Source: a virus. From it: 15,782 nt of DNA. Position numbers and translations under genes: made by a program. The first letter of the stretch is position 1, and every line of letters starts with the position of its first letter. The DNA lies in the UHGV virus genome UHGV-0147861. One strand, 5' to 3'. Below, piece by piece: positions 6,666 to 15,782 of the stretch. The notes under the pieces were generated by a model. That model was given only the letters and a program-made list of their open reading frames with translations. It was not told where the DNA came from and ran no database searches.

Positions 6666-7859
6666 GTGACCTGGGACGATCACAAGAAGAATTTTGCTCG
6701 CCTGGCGCGAGATGGTGGTTACACCATCGCACAGTATGCCGCCGAGTTTAATCTTAACCCTAATACTGCACGTCGTTATCTCCGTGCCTTCAAAGAAGAC
6801 ACCAGGACAGCGGACAGCCGCAAGCCAAATAAGCCAGTCAGGAAGCCACTAAAAAGCATGATCATTGATCACTCTAATGATCAACATGCAGGTGATCACA
6901 TTGCGGCTGAAATAGCGGAAAAACAAAGGGTTAATGCCGTTGTCAGTGCCGCAGTCGAGAACGCTAAGCGCCAAAATAAGCGCATAAATGATCGTTCTGA
7001 TGATCATGACGTGATCATCCGCGCCCACCGTACCTTACGTGATCGCCTGGAACGCGACACCCTGGATGATGATGGTGAACGCTTTGAATTCGAAGCTGGC
7101 GATTACCTGATAGATAACGTTGAAGCGCGGAAGGCCGCGCGCGCTATGTTGCGTCGGTCCGGGGCCGATGTTCTGGAAACCACTCTTCTGGAAAAGTCTC
7201 TTTCTCATCTCCTTATGCTGGAGAACGCCAGGGATACGTGTATTCGCCTGGTGCAGGAAATGCGCGATCAGCAAAAAGACGATGATGAAGGTACTCCGCC
7301 TGAATACCGTATCGCGAGCATGCTAAACAGCTGTTCCGCGCAGATAAGCAGCCTGATCAACACCATTTACAGCATCCGGAATAACTATCGAAAAGAAAGC
7401 CGGGAGGCGGAAAAGCACGCTTTGTCTATGGGGCAAGCTGGCATTGTTAAGCTGGCATACGAACGAAAGCGTGAAAATAACTGGTCAGTGCTGGAAGCAG
7501 CTGAATTCATCGAGGCGCATGGCGGGAAAGTGCCGCCCCTGATGCTGGAGCAAATCAAAGCCGATCTGCGTGCTCCTAAGACCAATACCGATGATGAGGA
7601 AAGGCAAACTGCCGTCGGTGGCCCTTCTCTTGAAGATCTGGACAAAGTTGCGCGAGAACGGGCCGCCAACCGCCGCGCCGATGCCGCATTGTGGATTGAG
7701 CAACGTAGGGAAGAAATCGCCGATATCGTTGATACAGGCGGTTATGGAGATGTTGATACTGAAGGTGTATCAAACGACCCATGGCTGGAACAAGACCTGG
7801 ACGAAGACGAGGAGGAAGACGAAGAAGTTACCCGCAAGCTATACGGGGATGATGATTAA
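6666..7859 (+). CDS. pacA: Terminase small/pac-recognition subunit PacA
   Basis: 397-aa ORF with GTG start and AGGAAG RBS; contains the pac hexamer arrays in its 5' third; acidic [10 protein letters not shown]-terminus; directly followed by pacB with a 1-nt overlap. Confidence 0.85.
6859..7017. other. pac packaging site: two arrays of TGATC(A/G) hexamers
   Basis: Four TGATCA copies at 6859-6864, 6866-6871, 6878-6883, 6893-6898 and three TGATC(A/G) copies at 6989-6994, 7001-7006, 7012-7017, about 90 bp apart; each contains a Dam GATC site. Matches the described P1 pac architecture. Confidence 0.8.
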
Positions 7860-9343
7860 TGGCCAGAAGTTGCGTAACGGATCCACGTTGGCGCGAGCTG
7901 GTGGCGCTATATCGTTATGACTGGATTGCGGCCGCTGATGTTTTGTTCGGCAAAACACCTACCTGGCAGCAGGATCTGATTATTGAGTCTGTGCAGGAAC
8001 AGGGTAGCAAGACATCTGTTTCGTCTGGTCACGGTACCGGGAAATCAGACATGACTTCTATCATGATCATGTTGTTCATAATCATGTATCCCGGTGCCCG
8101 CGCCATTATCGTTGCGAACAAAATTCAGCAGGTAATGACCGGTATATTCAAGTACATCAAGATAAACTGGGCTACTGCCACCAGCCGTTTTCCATGGCTT
8201 GCTGATTATTTTGTTCTGACAGAAACCGCTTTCTATGAGGTTACTGGTAAAGGTGTATGGACTGTAGTACCGAAGGGCTTTCGTCTGGGAAGTGAAGAAG
8301 CTCTCGCCGGTGAACACGCAGATCATCTTCTGTATATTATCGATGAAGCCTCCGGTGTCAGTGATAGAGCTTTCGGTATCATCACCGGTGCTCTTACCGG
8401 ACAGGATAACCGCATCTTATTACTGTCACAGCCTACACGCCCAAGCGGCTATTTCTACGATACTCACCATAAACTGGCCAAGCGTCCTGGTAACCCAGAT
8501 GGCGTTTATACGGCGATCACGCTTAACAGTGAGGAATCACCGCTGGTAACGCCAGAATTTATCAAAATGAAGCTGGCGGAGTACGGCGGGCGTGATAACC
8601 CTATGTACATGATTAAGGTACGCGGGCTATTCCCTAAATCACAGGACGGCTTCCTTCTTGGACGTGATGAGGTTGAACGTGCGACGCGGCGGAAAGTCAA
8701 GATTGCCAAAGGATGGGGCTGGCTTGCATGTGTGGACGTTGCTGGTGGTACAGGACGGGATAAGTCCGTTATCAATATCATGATGGTGTCCGGCCAGCGA
8801 AATAAACGCCGTGTAATCAACTATCGAATGCTGGAATACACAGACGTTACAGAAACGCAGCTTGCCGCCAAAATTTTCGCAGAATGTAATCCTGAGCGAT
8901 TCCCCAATATCACCATAGCGATAGACGGCGATGGCCTGGGTAAAGCAACGGCGGATCTGATGTACGAGTATTATGGTATTACCGTACAGCGTATACGCTG
9001 GGGTAAAAAGATGCATAGCCGTGAAGATAAGAGCCTGTACTTTGATAAACGTGCTTATGCCAATGTTCAAGCCGCAGAGGCCGTAAAATCTGGTCGTATG
9101 AGACTGGATAAGGGTAATGAAACTATTGAGGAAGCGTCGAAAATCCCTGTAGGGATTAACTCCGCAGGTCAATGGAAGGTGATGAGTAAGGAGGATATGA
9201 AGAAAAAACTCAACCTGCACTCACCAGACCATTGGGATACATATTGTTTCGCTATGCTGGCGGATTATGTTCCCCAGGATGAAGTGCTTAGCGTCGAAGA
9301 CGAAGCGCAGGTTGATGAAGCTCTGGCATGGCTTAATGAATGA
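7859..9343 (+). CDS. pacB: Terminase large subunit PacB
   Basis: 494-aa ORF; Walker A-like GHGTGKS near the N-terminus, Walker B-like [11 protein letters not shown]-terminal nuclease-like region; start overlaps the pacA stop. Confidence 0.9.
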
Positions 9344-9346
9344 ATA

Positions 9347-9363
9347 TTTGCTCTAATAAATTG
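9347..9363 (+). promoter_or_regulatory. C1 operator-like site upstream of the immI module
   Basis: TTTGCTCTAATAAATTG matches 15/17 of the C1 operator consensus; located 4 nt after the pacB stop and upstream of the c4/icd/ant region. Confidence 0.5.
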
Positions 9364-9495
9364 TGTTTTTTAGCTACCGATGCTACATTGAACCTGACCT
9401 CTTGCGCCTTGTGGCATTTTCGGTTTATGCTTATCAGGCACCTCATTAAAACGGGTGCCGGGATTGAGACCCCGGATAATGCAAAAGGCGACACA

Positions 9496-9517
9496 GACGC
9501 CAAAAGCGTCTTTTTTT
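9496..9517 (+). terminator. Possible intrinsic terminator or attenuator hairpin
   Basis: GACGC-CAAAA-GCGTC hairpin (9496-9510) followed by a run of seven T (9511-9517); the stem is short, so strength is uncertain. Confidence 0.35.
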
Positions 9518-9554
9518 GTGTCATGCCATCGCACAGCCATACGTAGCGTTTAGC

Positions 9555-9650
9555 TCAGAGATCAATGGTAGTGCTGGCTGGGCTGCCGAAAGGCAGGCCG
9601 GTTCCCTTTTGCGCCGGTAGTCTCAACCCAGTCAGTGCTACCGCCATTGA
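9555..9650 (+). ncRNA. c4: c4-like antisense RNA (immI repressor RNA), boundaries approximate
   Basis: Structured region with a GNRA-capped hairpin (CUGCC-GAAA-GGCAG, 9583-9596) and a long G-U-containing stem. Two elements are complementary to the downstream leader: 9636-9643 GCUACCGC pairs with 9665-9672 GCGGUAGC, and 9563-9571 CAAUGGUAG pairs with 9695-9703 CUGCCAUUG, bracketing the icd RBS and start codon. Confidence 0.5.
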
Positions 9651-9702
9651 GATTGAGACCTCACGCGGTAGCTCCTTAAATTAGCAAAAGGAGGCTGCCA
9701 TT

Positions 9703-9924
9703 GTGGCTACTATCCCTACCCCTGCTCATCCTGAATTTATCTGGCGCTTTTACTCCTGCCAAAAACGTCACTATCACTTCGTTATTGCACCGACAGAAGA
9801 TGAGGCACGTTCTCAGCTTCCTGACGCCCCATGTATTTTCTCTGCCCGTTTTTCCACTGATTCACACAATTCTCTCAGTTACTGGTGCCTCCCTGTTAAC
9901 GCTTCTGCTCTGGAGGGGCTATGA
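9703..9924 (+). CDS. icd: Icd-like small protein (73 aa), translationally coupled to ant
   Basis: GTG 9703 preceded by AAAGGAGG at 9687-9694; stop overlaps the ant ATG (ATGA, 9921-9924); size and position match the P1 icd gene as I recall it. The protein sequence itself is not recognised. Confidence 0.55.
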   Translation: MATIPTPAHPEFIWRFYSCQKRHYHFVIAPTEDEARSQLPDAPCIFSARFSTDSHNSLSYWCLPVNASALEGL

Positions 9925-11036
9925 GAACATCATTAGTCACCCGTAAAGAAATGATCGAGGCAATTGAACAGCACACTGCCTGTATCAGTACCAGGGATAT
10001 ACCTGGCGTTATTGCCAACTACTTCATGATCACCAAACAACTTTACCGGAGAAAGGACAAAAACGCGGTTCACCGCATTCTGCTAACCGATATCCGTGAA
10101 TACCTGCTCGAACAGGGTCATCTGAATTACGCAACCGTCGCAGCCGAAGCACGCAAGGAGGCACACAGAATGAAAGCAACTAACGTTAAATCAGAAAAAA
10201 CTCATGCACCTTCAGTTCAGGAATCGGAGCTGGTGGTTGTTCAGAATCAGTCTGATGAAATTCCCGTTCTGGAATGGCTGGGAGTGCGTGTAGTGACAAC
10301 TAAGATCCTTGCTAAGGGGTATGGGACAGATGCGGATAACATCAAGAAGAACTTTTCCCGTAATGCTGAACGTTTTTGTGAAGGCAAGCATTTCTATAAA
10401 GTTATTGGAGATGATTTGAACAATTTGCGGGTGACTTTAAGTAACTCACAAAATCCTATCTCTCCTAAAGCCCGCTCACTCATCCTCTGGACGGAACGCG
10501 GCGCAGCCCGCCACGCTAAAATGATCGAAACCGATCAGGCATGGGCATTCTTTGAAAAACTGGAAGACAGCTACTTCCGACAAAAAGAACAGCAACCGAT
10601 CGCAATCCCCCAGACGCTTCCAGAAGCTCTGCGCCTTGCTGCCGAACTGGCTGAACAAAAGCAACTTCTGGAACAGAAAGCCCATCAGCTAAATCAGCAG
10701 CTGGTGGCCGCAGCCCCCAAAGTCGATTTTGCCGACCGGGTATCAGTGGCTAAGGGGATCCTGATTGGGAATTTTGCAAAGGTCGTTGGACTTAAACAAA
10801 ATGCGCTGTTTGCCTGGTTACGGGAGAACGGCATTCTGATAGCGTCCGGCGGCCGTAAAAATGTACCGTTCCAGCAGTACATAAACGCCGGATATTTCAC
10901 AGTGAAAGAAGTGGTGCTGGATGATGAAGAGGGCTACCAGATACGGCTGACGCCCCAATTAACGGGGAAAGGCCAACAGTGGTTGACGCGTAAACTGCTC
11001 GATGCTGGCTTGTTAAAACCGGTGGCGGCTGAATAA
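9921..11036 (+). CDS. ant: Antirepressor Ant (Ant1; in-frame internal start at 10170 gives Ant2)
   Basis: 371-aa ORF with phage antirepressor-type N- and C-terminal regions (C-terminal KilA-C/ANT-like segment PKVDFADRVSVAKGILIGNFAKVVGLKQNALFAWLRENGIL). Internal ATG 10170 has AAGGAGG at 10155-10161 and would give a 288-aa product; the size ratio matches P1 Ant1/Ant2 (about 42/32 kDa). Confidence 0.8.
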   Translation: MRTSLVTRKEMIEAIEQHTACISTRDIPGVIANYFMITKQLYRRKDKNAVHRILLTDIREYLLEQGHLNYATVAAEARKEAHRMKATNVKSEKTHAPSVQESELVVVQNQSDEIPVLEWLGVRVVTTKILAKGYGTDADNIKKNFSRNAERFCEGKHFYKVIGDDLNNLRVTLSNSQNPISPKARSLILWTERGAARHAKMIETDQAWAFFEKLEDSYFRQKEQQPIAIPQTLPEALRLAAELAEQKQLLEQKAHQLNQQLVAAAPKVDFADRVSVAKGILIGNFAKVVGLKQNALFAWLRENGILIASGGRKNVPFQQYINAGYFTVKEVVLDDEEGYQIRLTPQLTGKGQQWLTRKLLDAGLLKPVAAE

Positions 11037-11068
11037 TGGAAGAATGCCCGGTTGATGCCGGGCATAAT

Positions 11069-11920
11069 TTATTGCGCGCTTTCGGGGTTGTCGTTTACTG
11101 GCTGCCCCTTCTTGGTTTTACGGCTGCGCGTAACTGATGCGGCTGACTTAACCTTTTTCTCTTCGCGAGTGATGGCAATTTGTTTTTTTACATTTTCAAT
11201 ATCTGCCAGGCGATATATTTTTGCTTGTGGCCAGCGGTCGCAGATGATCGGTTCTATGGAGTCATAAAGGCTAAATTTTGCTTTTTCGAATTCACCGTTG
11301 ATGATGATTCCATCACGGAGAGTTTCATCGCAGATAAACACGCCACACAGCGGTACATGGTAACTAACTGATTTACCATCATTGTAGTTAGGGCTACTGG
11401 AGATGTAGTGGACGCGCAGCATTGTTTCGCTAAAGCCGTGTACGCGCATACGGAATTTTTCATCCTCCGGGTACTGCTTCATTAGCTCTTTTGTTGCTTC
11501 CAGGTTCTCTATGTATTTCGCACTGTGCTCATTGATCCCCGCGCTTTTTTGGATGCGAATGTCCTTATCAATCAGATGAATAATGCGGCCAGCGGTCATG
11601 TTGACGCTGTTCACAGCTTCTGTCTGATAAGTTGTAACCTTGCGCACACCGCGAAGGATGTTAGGCACTGGATATAAAATAGTCTTTGGGATATTGAGGT
11701 CTGGGTACTGTTCCAGTTCCCGCGCCATTAAAGTCCATTTATCAATTTCAGCCTGAATGCTGTCAGTTTCTTTGAACGGTAGAACGACAACCGGGCGTAC
11801 AGGACGACCGTCGCTGGCTGTATCAACGTGTTGGGCGCGTGCAACAGCTTTTTTTAGAAAGAGATCCCTGAAGCTGACGAACTCCTGGTACAGTTGTTCG
11901 CCGTAGACATAATTTATCAT
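11069..11920 (-). CDS. c1: Primary immunity repressor C1
   Basis: 283-aa protein MINYVYGEQLYQEFVSFRDLFLKKAVARAQHVD... matches my memory of P1 C1 in sequence and length; strong RBS GGAGGAGGATCA before the ATG (minus strand). Confidence 0.93.
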   Translation of the reverse strand: MINYVYGEQLYQEFVSFRDLFLKKAVARAQHVDTASDGRPVRPVVVLPFKETDSIQAEIDKWTLMARELEQYPDLNIPKTILYPVPNILRGVRKVTTYQTEAVNSVNMTAGRIIHLIDKDIRIQKSAGINEHSAKYIENLEATKELMKQYPEDEKFRMRVHGFSETMLRVHYISSSPNYNDGKSVSYHVPLCGVFICDETLRDGIIINGEFEKAKFSLYDSIEPIICDRWPQAKIYRLADIENVKKQIAITREEKKVKSAASVTRSRKTKKGQPVNDNPESAQ

Positions 11921-12014
11921 TGATCCTCCTCCAGAATTGACATGGTCAATAACGCCCGGCTGAGAAAACCGGTCATTACTGACCTATATTATAGAGGGAT
12001 CAAACAAAAATAAT

Positions 12015-12031
12015 AGATTTATTAGTGCATT
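12015..12031 (-). promoter_or_regulatory. C1 operator-like site between coi and c1
   Basis: Plus-strand AGATTTATTAGTGCATT is the reverse complement of a 14/17 match to the C1 operator consensus; located at the coi 3' end upstream of c1. Confidence 0.4.
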
Positions 12032-12240
12032 TATTGTGAGTCTAACTGGTTAGTTGCCATGAGATATTCGATTGTGTCAGTGAGGTCATCCAGGTCGTCT
12101 TGGGTGATGCGGTACTCCTGATTGGATATCTTTGAGTAGTGTTCAGCAATGGCGCGGGCAGCGTCGGTTTCGGCAGGGTCTACAGATAAAGCGTTAGAGC
12201 AATGTCTAACGTCGTCGATGGTTGGTTGAATGAAAGCCAT
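12031..12240 (-). CDS. coi: C1 inactivator Coi
   Basis: 69-aa acidic protein MAFIQPTIDDVRHCSNALSVDPAETDAARAIAEHYSK... directly upstream of and co-oriented with c1; size and position match P1 Coi. Confidence 0.85.
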   Translation of the reverse strand: MAFIQPTIDDVRHCSNALSVDPAETDAARAIAEHYSKISNQEYRITQDDLDDLTDTIEYLMATNQLDSQ

Positions 12241-12478
12241 AATTATGCCTCACTGTATTGACAACACAGAGCCTGAAGCTCTGACCTACTGTTTCACCCA
12301 TGATCCATGCTGGGGTAATCTAACAACATTGCGCTGTGTGTAAGATGAGCAATGCATAGCTGTAATGCCGTTGTATAAGGTTTCCCTGTTTGCTCATTTC
12401 CTTCTGAGCCGCTCTACAACGCTGAAGACACATTAAATAGTGAATCCAAAGTCGTATTACGTAACGGCGGCAAAACTA

Positions 12479-12495
12479 TAATTTATTAGAGCAAT
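12479..12495 (-). promoter_or_regulatory. C1 operator (immC), 16/17 match
   Basis: Plus-strand TAATTTATTAGAGCAAT is the reverse complement of ATTGCTCTAATAAATTA, 16/17 to the consensus; upstream of coi. Confidence 0.55.
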
Positions 12496-12561
12496 TGTCA
12501 AACAACTATGAAAAACAATCCAGTTTTTAGCTGGTGGAGTGGGATTTTTCTCTCAAAATTT

Positions 12562-12578
12562 ATTGCTCTAATAATTAT
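12562..12578 (+). promoter_or_regulatory. C1 operator-like site (immC), 15/17 match
   Basis: ATTGCTCTAATAATTAT, 15/17 to the consensus, about 35 bp from the transposon terminus. Confidence 0.5.
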
Positions 12579-12613
12579 TGATTTTTGTGCGCAGCTGGAC
12601 GTAAACTCCTCTT

Positions 12614-12651
12614 GGGGGAACCGCAGAATTCGGAAAAAATCGTACGCTAAG
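12614..12651. repeat. 38-bp terminal inverted repeat of a Tn3-family (Tn1721/Tn21-group) transposon
   Basis: GGGGGAACCGCAGAATTCGGAAAAAATCGTACGCTAAG begins with GGGG and ends ...ACGCTAAG, the hallmark of Tn21/Tn1721-group IRs, and is close to the Tn1721 IR as I remember it. It is immediately flanked on the left by AT-rich P1-like DNA. Confidence 0.85.
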
Positions 12652-12802
12652 CTAACGGTGTTCTCGTGACAGCTCTTTGACTAGGCTTTCTAAGGCCATT
12701 CTGATAGCCCTGACTTCCTGAAAAGCCATGGCTAAAATTTGTGCGGCTAAAAGGGATAACCGATGGTAAAGTAAGTTATCCCTGTCGAGATACTGAAAAG
12801 CG

Positions 12803-14380
12803 TTATCCTCGTTTTTCCCAAAACTGTTTTGCCAGTTCGCTCAGAGCGCTAGTTAACTGAGCGACAGATTTCGCACTTTGCAAATTATTCTGCCCGGTCT
12901 GTACATTGGTATCAGCAGCATCGCGTATATTGATAATACTGCGGTTTATGTCTTCACTTACTGCTCCCTGCTGCTCGACCGCAGTCGCTATTTGCGCGTT
13001 CATGTCGGTAATTTCGTTAACGCGTTGGCCAATTCCATCAAGAGCTGTAGCTGCTTCCTCTGCGTGAGCTACACTCGTGTGCGCTTGCCGACTACTTTGC
13101 TCCATGACTGTAACAGCGGATTGCGCTCGCTCTTGTAGAGCGCTGATCATGCTTTGAATATCCGTTGTCGATTGCTGTGTGCGAGCAGCAAGACTGCGAA
13201 CCTCATCGGCGACAACAGCAAAACCACGCCCCTGCTCACCAGCACGCGCGGCCTCAATTGCTGCGTTGAGTGCCAACAAATTCGTTTGCTCGGCGATCCC
13301 TCGTATAACGTCAAGAACTTTTGATATCTCGTTACTTTGACCTTCAAGCTCATGAATAACCTGAGTGGCTTGCCTAATTTCACCTTCAAGGGCAGTGATT
13401 GACTGGCTTGTGTGGGCTACCAGACGCTGGCCAGATGCCGTCTCAGTGTCTGCTCTTCCGGCCGCATCTGCAGCATGCTGTGCATTGCTCGCAACCTCTT
13501 GAATGCTTGCCACCATTTGGTTTACTGCCGTTGCTATTTGATCTGTCTCTGCCTGCTGCTCAACTGTAAGTACATTGCTTGACTCAATATCCTTTAGTAG
13601 GCCTCGGGTGTGTTCGCTAAGCCGATTTGATGCATCACCTATGCGACCTACTATGGCGCCTGTTTCAGCTTGCATCATTCGTAAAGCAAACTCTATTTGG
13701 CCAAACTCATCGGTGCGCCCAGTGTAGAGGGATTGACTTAATGGGTTATTGGAAATATTCCTGGCTCTTTCAACCAGTCTTCCAAGAGGAGAGAGAATAG
13801 CCAAAACACTAACAGAGCTTAAGCTTCCTGACATTAAAGTGGCTAACAATAAGCTGCTTATTGATGTATCAGTAAGCATGCCGGCAGCCATTGCGCTTGA
13901 TATAATACTACCCCATATGAGCAAGAGTATTTTCACGGAAAAGCTAGCAGCCAATTTCGGCCTCGCGGCCTTCCCGCTTCTCAATTGAGCATATAATTTT
14001 TCCGCAGCCAAAACCTGCTCAGGTTCAGGCTTGGTCCTTACAGACTGGTATTCAACAATCGAACCATTCTTAGCTATTGGCGTTACATAAGCACTTACCC
14101 AATAGTGGTCGCCATTTTTACAGCGATTTTTTACTAGCCCCATCCATGAGCGGCCAGATTTTAATGTACTCCACATATGCTCAAATGCAGCAGGCGGCAT
14201 ATCTGGGTGTCTTACGATGTTGTGAGGCTGGCCTAATAGTTCTTCCTCAGTGAAACCACTGATTTTAATGAAGTCAGGATTAACGTACGTGATATGGCTT
14301 TGAGGGGAGGTAGTCGAAAGAATATTGGCATCTTTTGGGAGTTCTAAGTTTCGACCCGTCACTGGTAAATTCTGGCGCAT
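12803..14380 (-). CDS. Methyl-accepting chemotaxis protein, Aer-like (PAS + HAMP + MCP signalling domain)
   Basis: N-terminal PAS-like region ([31 protein letters not shown]), hydrophobic segments, and the highly conserved MCP signalling motif [42 protein letters not shown]; corresponds to the orfI chemoreceptor-like gene of Tn1721. Confidence 0.9.
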
Positions 14381-14519
14381 AAGAACCTCAAGGGTTGGCT
14401 GTTTTATTTTATTGTTTTCGGCATTAAGCCCAATTTCTTGAGCGTTACGATAAAGCTAGCATGGAAACGATAGGTGCAAGCAAGTTAAGGGTTGCATCGC
14501 GCATGTCAATCTAGGCTAT

Positions 14520-14689
14520 ACCCTAACTTGATGTCAGGCAGGGCCGCGCCGCTTCGTCAGAATAGAGTCTGCTTTCCCATTTTTTGACACATGCCCGCGA
14601 AGGTTATAGATTTCAGCCTGACAGAAATGGGCTTTGAGGCACAACGGAACAGAAAGTGCACTTAAGCCGCCTTCAACCAAGGAGACATC
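14520..14689. promoter_or_regulatory. Putative res (resolution) site region and tnpR/mcp divergent promoter region
   Basis: Intergenic region between divergent mcp and tnpR containing repeated TGTCAG/CTGACA-type half-sites (TGTCAGGC 14532-14539, CGTCAGAA 14555-14562, TTTGACAC 14583-14590, CCTGACAGAA 14617-14626), the position where Tn3-family res sites lie. Subsite boundaries not resolved. Confidence 0.55.
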
Positions 14690-15250
14690 GTGCAGGGGCA
14701 CCGCATCGGCTACGTCCGGGTCAGCAGCTTTGACCAGAACCCGGAACGCCAGCTGGAACAAACCCAGGTGAGCAAGGTGTTCACCGACAAGGCATCGGGC
14801 AAGGACACCCAGCGCCCCCAGCTCGAAGCGCTGCTGAGCTTCGTCCGCGAAGGCGATACAGTGGTGGTGCACAGCATGGATCGGCTGGCCCGCAACCTCG
14901 ATGACCTGCGTCGCTTGGTACAGAAGCTGACTCAGCGCGGCGTGCGCATCGAGTTCCTGAAGGAGGGCCTGGTGTTCACTGGCGAGGACTCGCCGATGGC
15001 CAACCTGATGCTGTCGGTGATGGGGGCCTTCGCTGAGTTCGAGCGCGCCCTGATCCGCGAGCGGCAGCGTGAGGGCATCGCCTTGGCCAAGCAGCGTGGC
15101 GCGTACCGGGGCCGCAAGAAAGCCCTGTCCGATGAGCAGGCTGCTACCCTGCGGCAGCGAGCGACGGCCGGCGAGCCCAAGGCGCAGCTTGCCCGCGAGT
15201 TCAACATCAGCCGGGAAACCCTCTACCAGTACCTCCGCACGGACGACTGA
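14690..15250 (+). CDS. tnpR: Serine recombinase resolvase TnpR
   Basis: 186-aa protein with the resolvase N-terminal catalytic motif GYVRVSSFDQNPERQ and C-terminal HTH; GTG start with AAGGAG RBS at 14679-14684; matches Tn1721-group TnpR. Confidence 0.95.
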   Translation: MQGHRIGYVRVSSFDQNPERQLEQTQVSKVFTDKASGKDTQRPQLEALLSFVREGDTVVVHSMDRLARNLDDLRRLVQKLTQRGVRIEFLKEGLVFTGEDSPMANLMLSVMGAFAEFERALIRERQREGIALAKQRGAYRGRKKALSDEQAATLRQRATAGEPKAQLAREFNISRETLYQYLRTDD

Positions 15251-15253
15251 CAC

Positions 15254-15782
15254 ATGCCGCGTCGCTTGATCCTCTCGGCCACGGAGCGGGACACCCTGCT
15301 TGCGCTGCCGGAAAGCCAGGATGACCTGATCCGCTACTACACCTTCAACGACTCCGACCTGTCGCTGATCCGCCAGCGACGCGGCGACGCCAACCGCCTC
15401 GGCTTCGCCGTGCAGCTCTGCCTGCTGCGCTACCCCGGTTACGCGCTGGGAACCGACAGCGAGCTGCCCGAGCCGGTCATCCTGTGGGTGGCGAAGCAAG
15501 TCCAGGCCGAGCCGGCGAGCTGGGCAAAGTACGGCGAGCGCGACGTGACCCGTCGCGAGCATGCCCAGGAACTGCGCACCTACCTGCAACTGGCCCCGTT
15601 CGGCCTGTCCGACTTCCGCGCCCTGGTGCGCGAGCTAACCGAGCTGGCCCAGCAGACCGACAAAGGCTTGCTGCTGGCCGGTCAGGCCCTGGAGAGCCTA
15701 CGGCAGAAACGACGCATCCTGCCGGCGCTGAGCGTGATTGACCGGGCCTGCTCGGAAGCCATTGCGCGAGCCAATCGGCGGG
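15254..15782 (+). CDS. tnpA: Tn3-family transposase TnpA, N-terminal 176 codons (3' end outside window)
   Basis: ATG 15254 four nt after the tnpR stop; translation [62 protein letters not shown]... matches the conserved N-terminus of Tn21/Tn1721-type TnpA; frame is open to the window end. Confidence 0.9.

Follow-up and report, generated by a model that had tools for sequence, protein, structure and literature searches.

The stretch of DNA analyzed here (hereafter the window, 15,782 nucleotides) comes from a P1-like (Punavirus) phage-plasmid, recognized from its open reading frames and their homology by humD, phd/doc, a DUF968 gene, lpa, pacA and pacB. A module composed of an ash-like ORF of 39 aa, an icd-like gene and the antirepressor gene ant occupies the interval between pacB and c1 (~9565-11036). 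In reference P1, c1 lies only 24 bp past pacB, whereas the icd/antirepressor module belongs to the lineage described here, and some sibling loci (L013, L015 and L018) carry a second copy of ant near mat.

The immunity region immC follows (Table 1). Its four ORFs c1, coi, imcB and imcA are open and lie on one strand, the last three being upstream of c1. The primary repressor C1 differs from the C1.100 protein of P1 by 2 aa and is found as an exact protein on more than 1000 contigs, and the exact Coi protein is also very common in P1-like contigs. The five 17-bp C1 operators, Oc1a to Oc1e, are all found at conserved positions with 0-1 mismatch each relative to P1. Beyond them, the right-hand part of the window is occupied by a transposon.

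Table 1. Coordinates of the features of the window and of its continuation in the source contig (positions are those of the window unless stated otherwise).
Feature	Position	Strand	Evidence or remarks
pacA	6666-7859		ORF and homology
pacB	7859-9343		ORF and homology
icd-like gene, 73 aa	9703-9924		
ant, 371 aa	9921-11036		ORF6N and ANT domains
c1, primary immunity repressor, 283 aa, intact	11069-11920	-	NCBIfam NF041318 phage_rep_C1, 611.6 bits (cutoff 500), full length
Pc1 and bivalent operator Oc1ab (former Op99a/b)	11988-12031	-	Pc1 hexamers identical to P1; Oc1a 0 and Oc1b 1 mismatch
coi, C1 inactivator, 69 aa, intact	12031-12240	-	67/69 aa identical to P1 Coi
Operator Oc1c, within coi	12187-12203		identical to P1
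imcB, 31 aa, intact	12206-12301	-	identical to P1 ImcB
imcA, 37 aa, intact	12320-12433	-	1 aa difference vs P1 ImcA, no stop codon
P1coi promoter (former P99d), with Oc1d at 12479-12495	12472-12501	-	-10, -35 and operator identical to P1
C1 operator Oc1e (former Op99e)	12562-12578	+	ATTGCTCTAATAATTAT, 1 mismatch vs P1 Oc1e
P4cre promoter	12578-12607	+	-35 TTGATT, -10 TAAACT, hexamers identical to P1; now faces the transposon, not loxP-cra-cre
Target-site duplication CTCTT, left copy	12609-12613		same pentamer directly after IRR
IRL, 38-bp terminal inverted repeat of Tn1722/Tn1721	12614-12651	+	GGGGGAACCGCAGAATTCGGAAAAAATCGTACGCTAAG
Hairpin, 10-bp stem, then UUUU; likely weak terminator	12748-12783	-	ViennaRNA fold of the minus strand, ~20 nt past the mcp stop
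mcp/orfI, PAS-domain methyl-accepting chemotaxis-like passenger gene, 525 aa	12803-14380	-	Pfam PAS_9/HAMP/MCPsignal; NCBIfam PAS and MCP-family
mcp-tnpR intergenic region, putative place of res	14381-14689		position only; identical to other copies
tnpR, serine resolvase, 186 aa	14690-15250	+	Pfam Resolvase and HTH_7
tnpA, 5' part	15254-15782	+	full protein 988 aa; leaves the window, ends at window-equivalent 18220 (contig 18423)
IRR	window-equivalent 18216-18253 (QBCI01000147.1 18419-18456)		source contig
Target-site duplication CTCTT, right copy	window-equivalent 18254-18258 (QBCI01000147.1 18457-18461)		source contig
loxP	window-equivalent 18267-18300		source contig; identical to P1
Mobile-element ends in other loci, located within imcA or in the Oc1d-Oc1e interval	L002 ~9327; L004 ~10356; L010/L017 ~9882; L012 ~9886; L014 ~9713		positions in the respective loci

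Base-level alignments with P1, SJ46 and pRHBSTW-00313_2 revealed that P1-family homology, comprising c1, coi, imcB, imcA and the operators, runs gap-free up to position 12613 (...GGACGTAAACTCCTCTT) and ends exactly there. Past this position, P1 continues with CAGACCTA and then loxP, whereas the window continues with the inverted repeat. After mapping of the P1 annotation by a constant offset (window position + 82162 = P1 coordinate), the breakpoint falls between P1 coordinates 94775 and 94776, with 6 bp separating it from the -10 hexamer of P4cre on one side and 8 bp from the left loxP arm on the other. The insertion site thus lies on the outer border of immC, in the 13-bp gap between this hexamer and loxP, and we infer that it coincides approximately with the predicted +1 of P4cre. 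A preliminary description of this DNA had placed the start of a 38-bp Tn3-family inverted repeat at 12614, with a C1 operator-like site about 35 bp away and the coi start about 370 bp away. All three statements proved accurate: the repeat matches the left end (IRL) of Tn1721/Tn1722, the operator is Oc1e at a distance of 36 bp, and the start codon of coi (position 12240) lies 374 bp from the repeat.

Since the transposon leaves the window within tnpA, its other end was located on the source contig, GenBank WGS entry QBCI01000147.1 (L032; assembly GCA_003123085.1; 34,066 bp), on which all 15,782 bases of the window align to 204-15985 without a mismatch. This contig was reached by exact-protein lookup with PacA, the window proteins having been ranked by rarity; the locus obtained in this way ended about 400 bp before the right end, and the 68-aa ORF at 9340-9546, used in the same way, extended the view to contig position 19749. 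Coi was unsuited to exact-protein lookup because it is too common (27,642 blocks). On the source contig, the right junction reads ...CTTAGCGTACGATTTTTTCCGAATTCTGCGGGCTCCCC / CTCTT / CGGATCTG / ATAACTTCGTATAGCATACATTATACGAAGTTAT, the last segment being loxP, followed by cra and cre.

The complete element is 5,640 bp long, is organized in the order IRL-mcp-tnpR-tnpA-IRR and lacks a resistance gene. Tn1722, the 5.6-kb basic ("minor") transposon of Tn1721, belongs to the Tn21/Tn501 subgroup of the Tn3 family and bears the NCBI label "TnAs1 family". As the element is 5.6 kb long and lacks both tetR/tetA and a third inverted repeat, with cra and cre found directly after IRR, we identified it as Tn1722 and not as full Tn1721. 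Its two 38-bp ends are identical at 35/38 positions, and IRL does not differ from the Tn1721/Tn1722 left end of SJ46, of MH445380 or of thousands of plasmids. Likewise, the 3.2 kb of transposon sequence contained in the window match Tn1721/Tn1722 copies of thousands of enterobacterial plasmids at 100% identity. The passenger gene mcp/orfI is annotated as aer/MCP in relatives, and the TnpR protein is identical to the Tn1721 resolvase annotated in relatives such as SJ46. The full TnpA protein, taken from the source contig, matches NCBIfam NF033527 transpos_Tn3 at 1289.2 bits (cutoff 500) over profile positions 2-954 of 954 and contains the Pfam domains DUF4158 and DDE_Tnp_Tn3. With all of its ORFs and both ends intact, this Tn1722 is apparently functional, and its sequence is compatible with transposition activity.

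Comparison with the Tn1722 copy of MH445380 (L007) gave 100% identity within the window and 5625/5640 identical positions over the whole element, all 15 differences being located past the end of the window, in the 3' portion of tnpA (QBCI01000147.1 15986-18456); this clustering might point to a mosaic or recombinant gene. A 351-aa ORF on the minus strand (14534-15589), antisense to tnpR and to the start of tnpA, lies in a stretch of 59-67% GC, is not called as a gene in any of the contigs analyzed and is almost certainly a high-GC artefact.

The pentamer CTCTT, proposed earlier from the left flank alone as the candidate 5-bp target, recurs directly after IRR as a perfect duplication, for which a chance match at a fixed position has a probability of ~1/1024. 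The same description had called for the other transposon end to be searched for a matching repeat and for the flanks to be aligned with an uninterrupted P1-family region, and both comparisons bore out an insertion at this pentamer. Removal of the element together with one copy of CTCTT rebuilt an empty site that is identical over 2700/2700 bp to four independent transposon-free sibling contigs (L021/L030, L022 and L025). An 80-bp probe spanning the rebuilt site was found exactly in seven loci, in which CTCTT is single-copy. In the source contig, the 8 bp between the pentamer and loxP read CGGATCTG (QBCI01000147.1 18462-18469), instead of CAGACCTA in P1 (94776-94783), SJ46 and CP056619; the 34-bp loxP is identical to that of P1 despite this difference.

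The same contig was found in at least two samples. Exact scans of the viral_contigs, genome_contigs and metagenome_contigs collections with a 37-mer covering the left junction (12597-12633) gave no match, and BLAST searches with the junction sequence found no spanning record among phages, PLSDB plasmids or complete E. coli genomes. Candidates for the same allele were SJ46 and the PLSDB records (n=4) in which at least 80% of window positions 11000-15782 are covered; the four inspected carry the transposon elsewhere. The other locations were between ref and mat in SJ46, after cre in CP056619, behind IS1 in NZ_CP070027 and inside imcA in NZ_CP135674. The remaining PLSDB candidate, NZ_CP069684.1 (H23), is covered by the BLAST search, in which no PLSDB record spanned the junction. 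A 6-bp flank, CCTCTT, seemingly common to many Tn1721 matches was discarded as a gapped chance match to an IS26-blaSHV-12-deoR context (CCTCTTT/GGGGG).

On the right of the insertion, the loxP-cra-cre region with its LexA-boxed P2coi promoter is conserved in the source contig and shifted by 5,645 bp, so that the divergent immC/lox-cre control region is split by that distance. The LexA box (ACCTGTAAATCCATACAGTT) and the hexamers of P2coi, P3cre, P2cre and P1cre are identical to those of P1, as are the first 270 aa of Cre, and Cra carries 1 substitution. In the P1 record, P2coi lies beyond loxP, points toward coi and overlaps a LexA site at 41-68, and Oc1e, which overlaps the -35 of P4cre, is described as one that "may control expression of cra and cre". 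The link between the SOS response and Coi, the inactivator of C1, has been presented as acting through the LexA-overlapped P2coi (PMC4713147). P2coi, P4cre and the LexA site are annotations in the P1 record, and no direct functional test of them was found in the accessible literature.

Placed on this map, the insertion breaks only two links, P2coi-coi and P4cre-cra-cre, and its predicted effect, for instance a weaker SOS induction, is probably mild. To reach coi, now 5.6 kb away, transcripts initiated at P2coi would need to traverse the entire transposon in antisense to tnpA and tnpR, and the SOS input to Coi is therefore probably lost or weakened. The C1-controlled P1coi/Oc1d would still serve imcA-imcB-coi-c1, whereas the C1-controlled P4cre would now fire into IRL, antisense to mcp, and leave cre to its three proximal promoters (P3cre, P2cre and P1cre). 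As for mcp, it is oriented toward immC, on the same strand as coi and c1. A consensus terminator scan between mcp and IRL found none and missed the mcp hairpin because of its 12-nt loop; this hairpin, followed past the mcp stop by a short U-run (UUUU) in the folding model, probably limits read-through toward immC.

How the junction arose can be settled from its two ends. Recombination or deletion between two transposon copies, or a chimera of assembly, could be imagined from the window, which holds only one end, and from the absence of the same junction in any curated collection. Yet a single contig holds both ends, the 5-bp duplication is perfect, P1 sequence is contiguous on either side and the empty site is rebuilt exactly, all of which refutes this reading and makes it vanishingly improbable. 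We therefore favor the entry of a complete Tn1722 into a P1-like phage-plasmid by simple Tn3-family transposition (probability of about 0.9), the regulatory effects outlined above being part of the same explanation. The preliminary description went further, proposing that the transposon had inserted into immC and disrupted or displaced part of the immunity control region, with lysogeny destabilized or the element locked into a plasmid state. A genuine transposition beside immC stands, but the disruption does not: the working immC is not disrupted, and each known immunity element is intact on its own side. Among the immunity-related elements, displacement holds for P2coi only. It is true that the insertion lies less than about 100 bp from immC promoters, and that mcp is transcribed toward coi without a strong canonical terminator having been found. 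Against this, immC operators, promoters and ORFs are all conserved, a hairpin and U-run follow mcp, and lpa is as intact as the genes and sites for cyclization and packaging. Genuine cases of immC disruption look different, such as Tn1722 inside imcA in NZ_CP135674.1 or IS1/IS5 in imcA elsewhere. Loss of immunity control is consequently very improbable, and the proposed lock in a plasmid state is without support given that loxP, cra, cre, pacA and pacB are intact.

If transposition beside immC is accepted, the question becomes whether separation of the two promoters matters. Tn1722 could be a neutral passenger, P2coi and P4cre contributing so little that their separation has no measurable consequence; we consider this at slightly less than even odds. 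Such neutrality would fit the intact core of immC and the three intact proximal cre promoters, as well as the recovery of the contig from at least two samples, from which we conclude that the plasmid is maintained. It would also fit the behavior of SJ46/P1-CTX, which has a Tn1721-family insertion elsewhere and stays inducible and infective (PMC11117986). It is harder to reconcile with the conservation of the undivided region: a 400-bp empty-site probe showed the stretch from Oc1e through loxP to the LexA box to be unbroken in 682 of the 705 matching PLSDB plasmids (~97%), and the LexA box is identical in 18/18 loci containing it. These observations suggest that the conserved arrangement is under constraint. 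At the other extreme, the removal of P2coi from coi might render the element SOS-refractory, or much less responsive, and shift it to a stable plasmid lifestyle, an outcome that we regard as unlikely. Were it true, this allele and its 100%-identical empty-site siblings would provide a clean natural experiment on the LexA-to-Coi induction route of P1, long assumed and barely tested. For the Tn1722 insertion beside immC, of which 34 kb of plasmid was assembled, the most likely net phenotype predicted from sequence is normal immunity and plasmid maintenance in an element that is still packageable, with a DNA-damage inducibility that is unchanged or somewhat reduced.

Several mobile elements have been inserted in the same neighborhood. 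In other P1-like plasmids and in chromosomal P1 remnants, Tn1722-, IS1- and IS5-type ends are found inside imcA or between Oc1d and Oc1e (equivalent to window 12326-12528; Table 1), which designates the few hundred bp upstream of coi as a recurrent landing zone for mobile elements. These other alleles lose P1coi/Oc1d or the lox side, unlike the insertion described here. In L017 (9550-9882; GCA_949281865.1, within the 2.86-Mb contig CASDNS010000056.1), an IS5-type end (GGAAGGTGCGAA) abuts imcA and the interruption measures only ~330 bp, far short of a complete IS5; the element may be a truncated or miniature form.

Compared with the immC/lox-cre region of P1 (NC_005856), none of the annotated elements is missing and each has 0-1 mismatches, order and spacing being retained on either side of the insertion; the differences are the split at 94775/94776 by 5,645 bp, the altered spacer and the added icd/ant module. 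The element itself has the gene order, 38-bp inverted repeats and 5-bp duplication of the Tn1722 of Tn1721, with 99.7-100% nucleotide identity to annotated copies. The full Tn1721 inserted after cre in CP056619.1 possesses a tetR-tetA-pecM extension and a third inverted repeat, both of which are lacking here, and the Tn1722 copy of MH445380 is located next to ref. The insertions of Tn1722, IS1 or IS5 within imcA (NZ_CP135674.1, NZ_CP070027.1, CP055919.1 and RCS47) likewise lie a few hundred bp upstream of coi; in NZ_CP135674.1, IRL abuts imcA. These insertions break imcA and/or remove P1coi, Oc1d and Oc1e, whereas the one described here spares them all.

A close precedent is the Tn1721-blaCTX-M-27 element of the P1-like phages SJ46/P1-CTX, which has inverted repeats and is flanked by a duplication of 5-6 bp; transposition from one P1 phage to another was demonstrated in the laboratory, the phages remaining inducible and transducing (PMC5241659, PMC11117986). 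In SJ46/P1-CTX the element occupies a site between ref and mat, has duplicated TATGA(A) and contains an mcp gene interrupted by an ISEcp1-blaCTX-M-27 module. The insertion described here separates P4cre from loxP, has duplicated CTCTT and is free of resistance cargo. Insertions of the Tn1721 family are thus known from P1-like phages, and the present allele is set apart only by its insertion site and its lack of resistance cargo. A cargo-free Tn1722 can settle between immC and loxP without destroying the genes for immunity, cyclization or packaging. Elements of the Tn1721 family often carry ESBL or tetracycline-resistance genes, and the site described here adds one more landing site for their traffic into transducing phage-plasmids.
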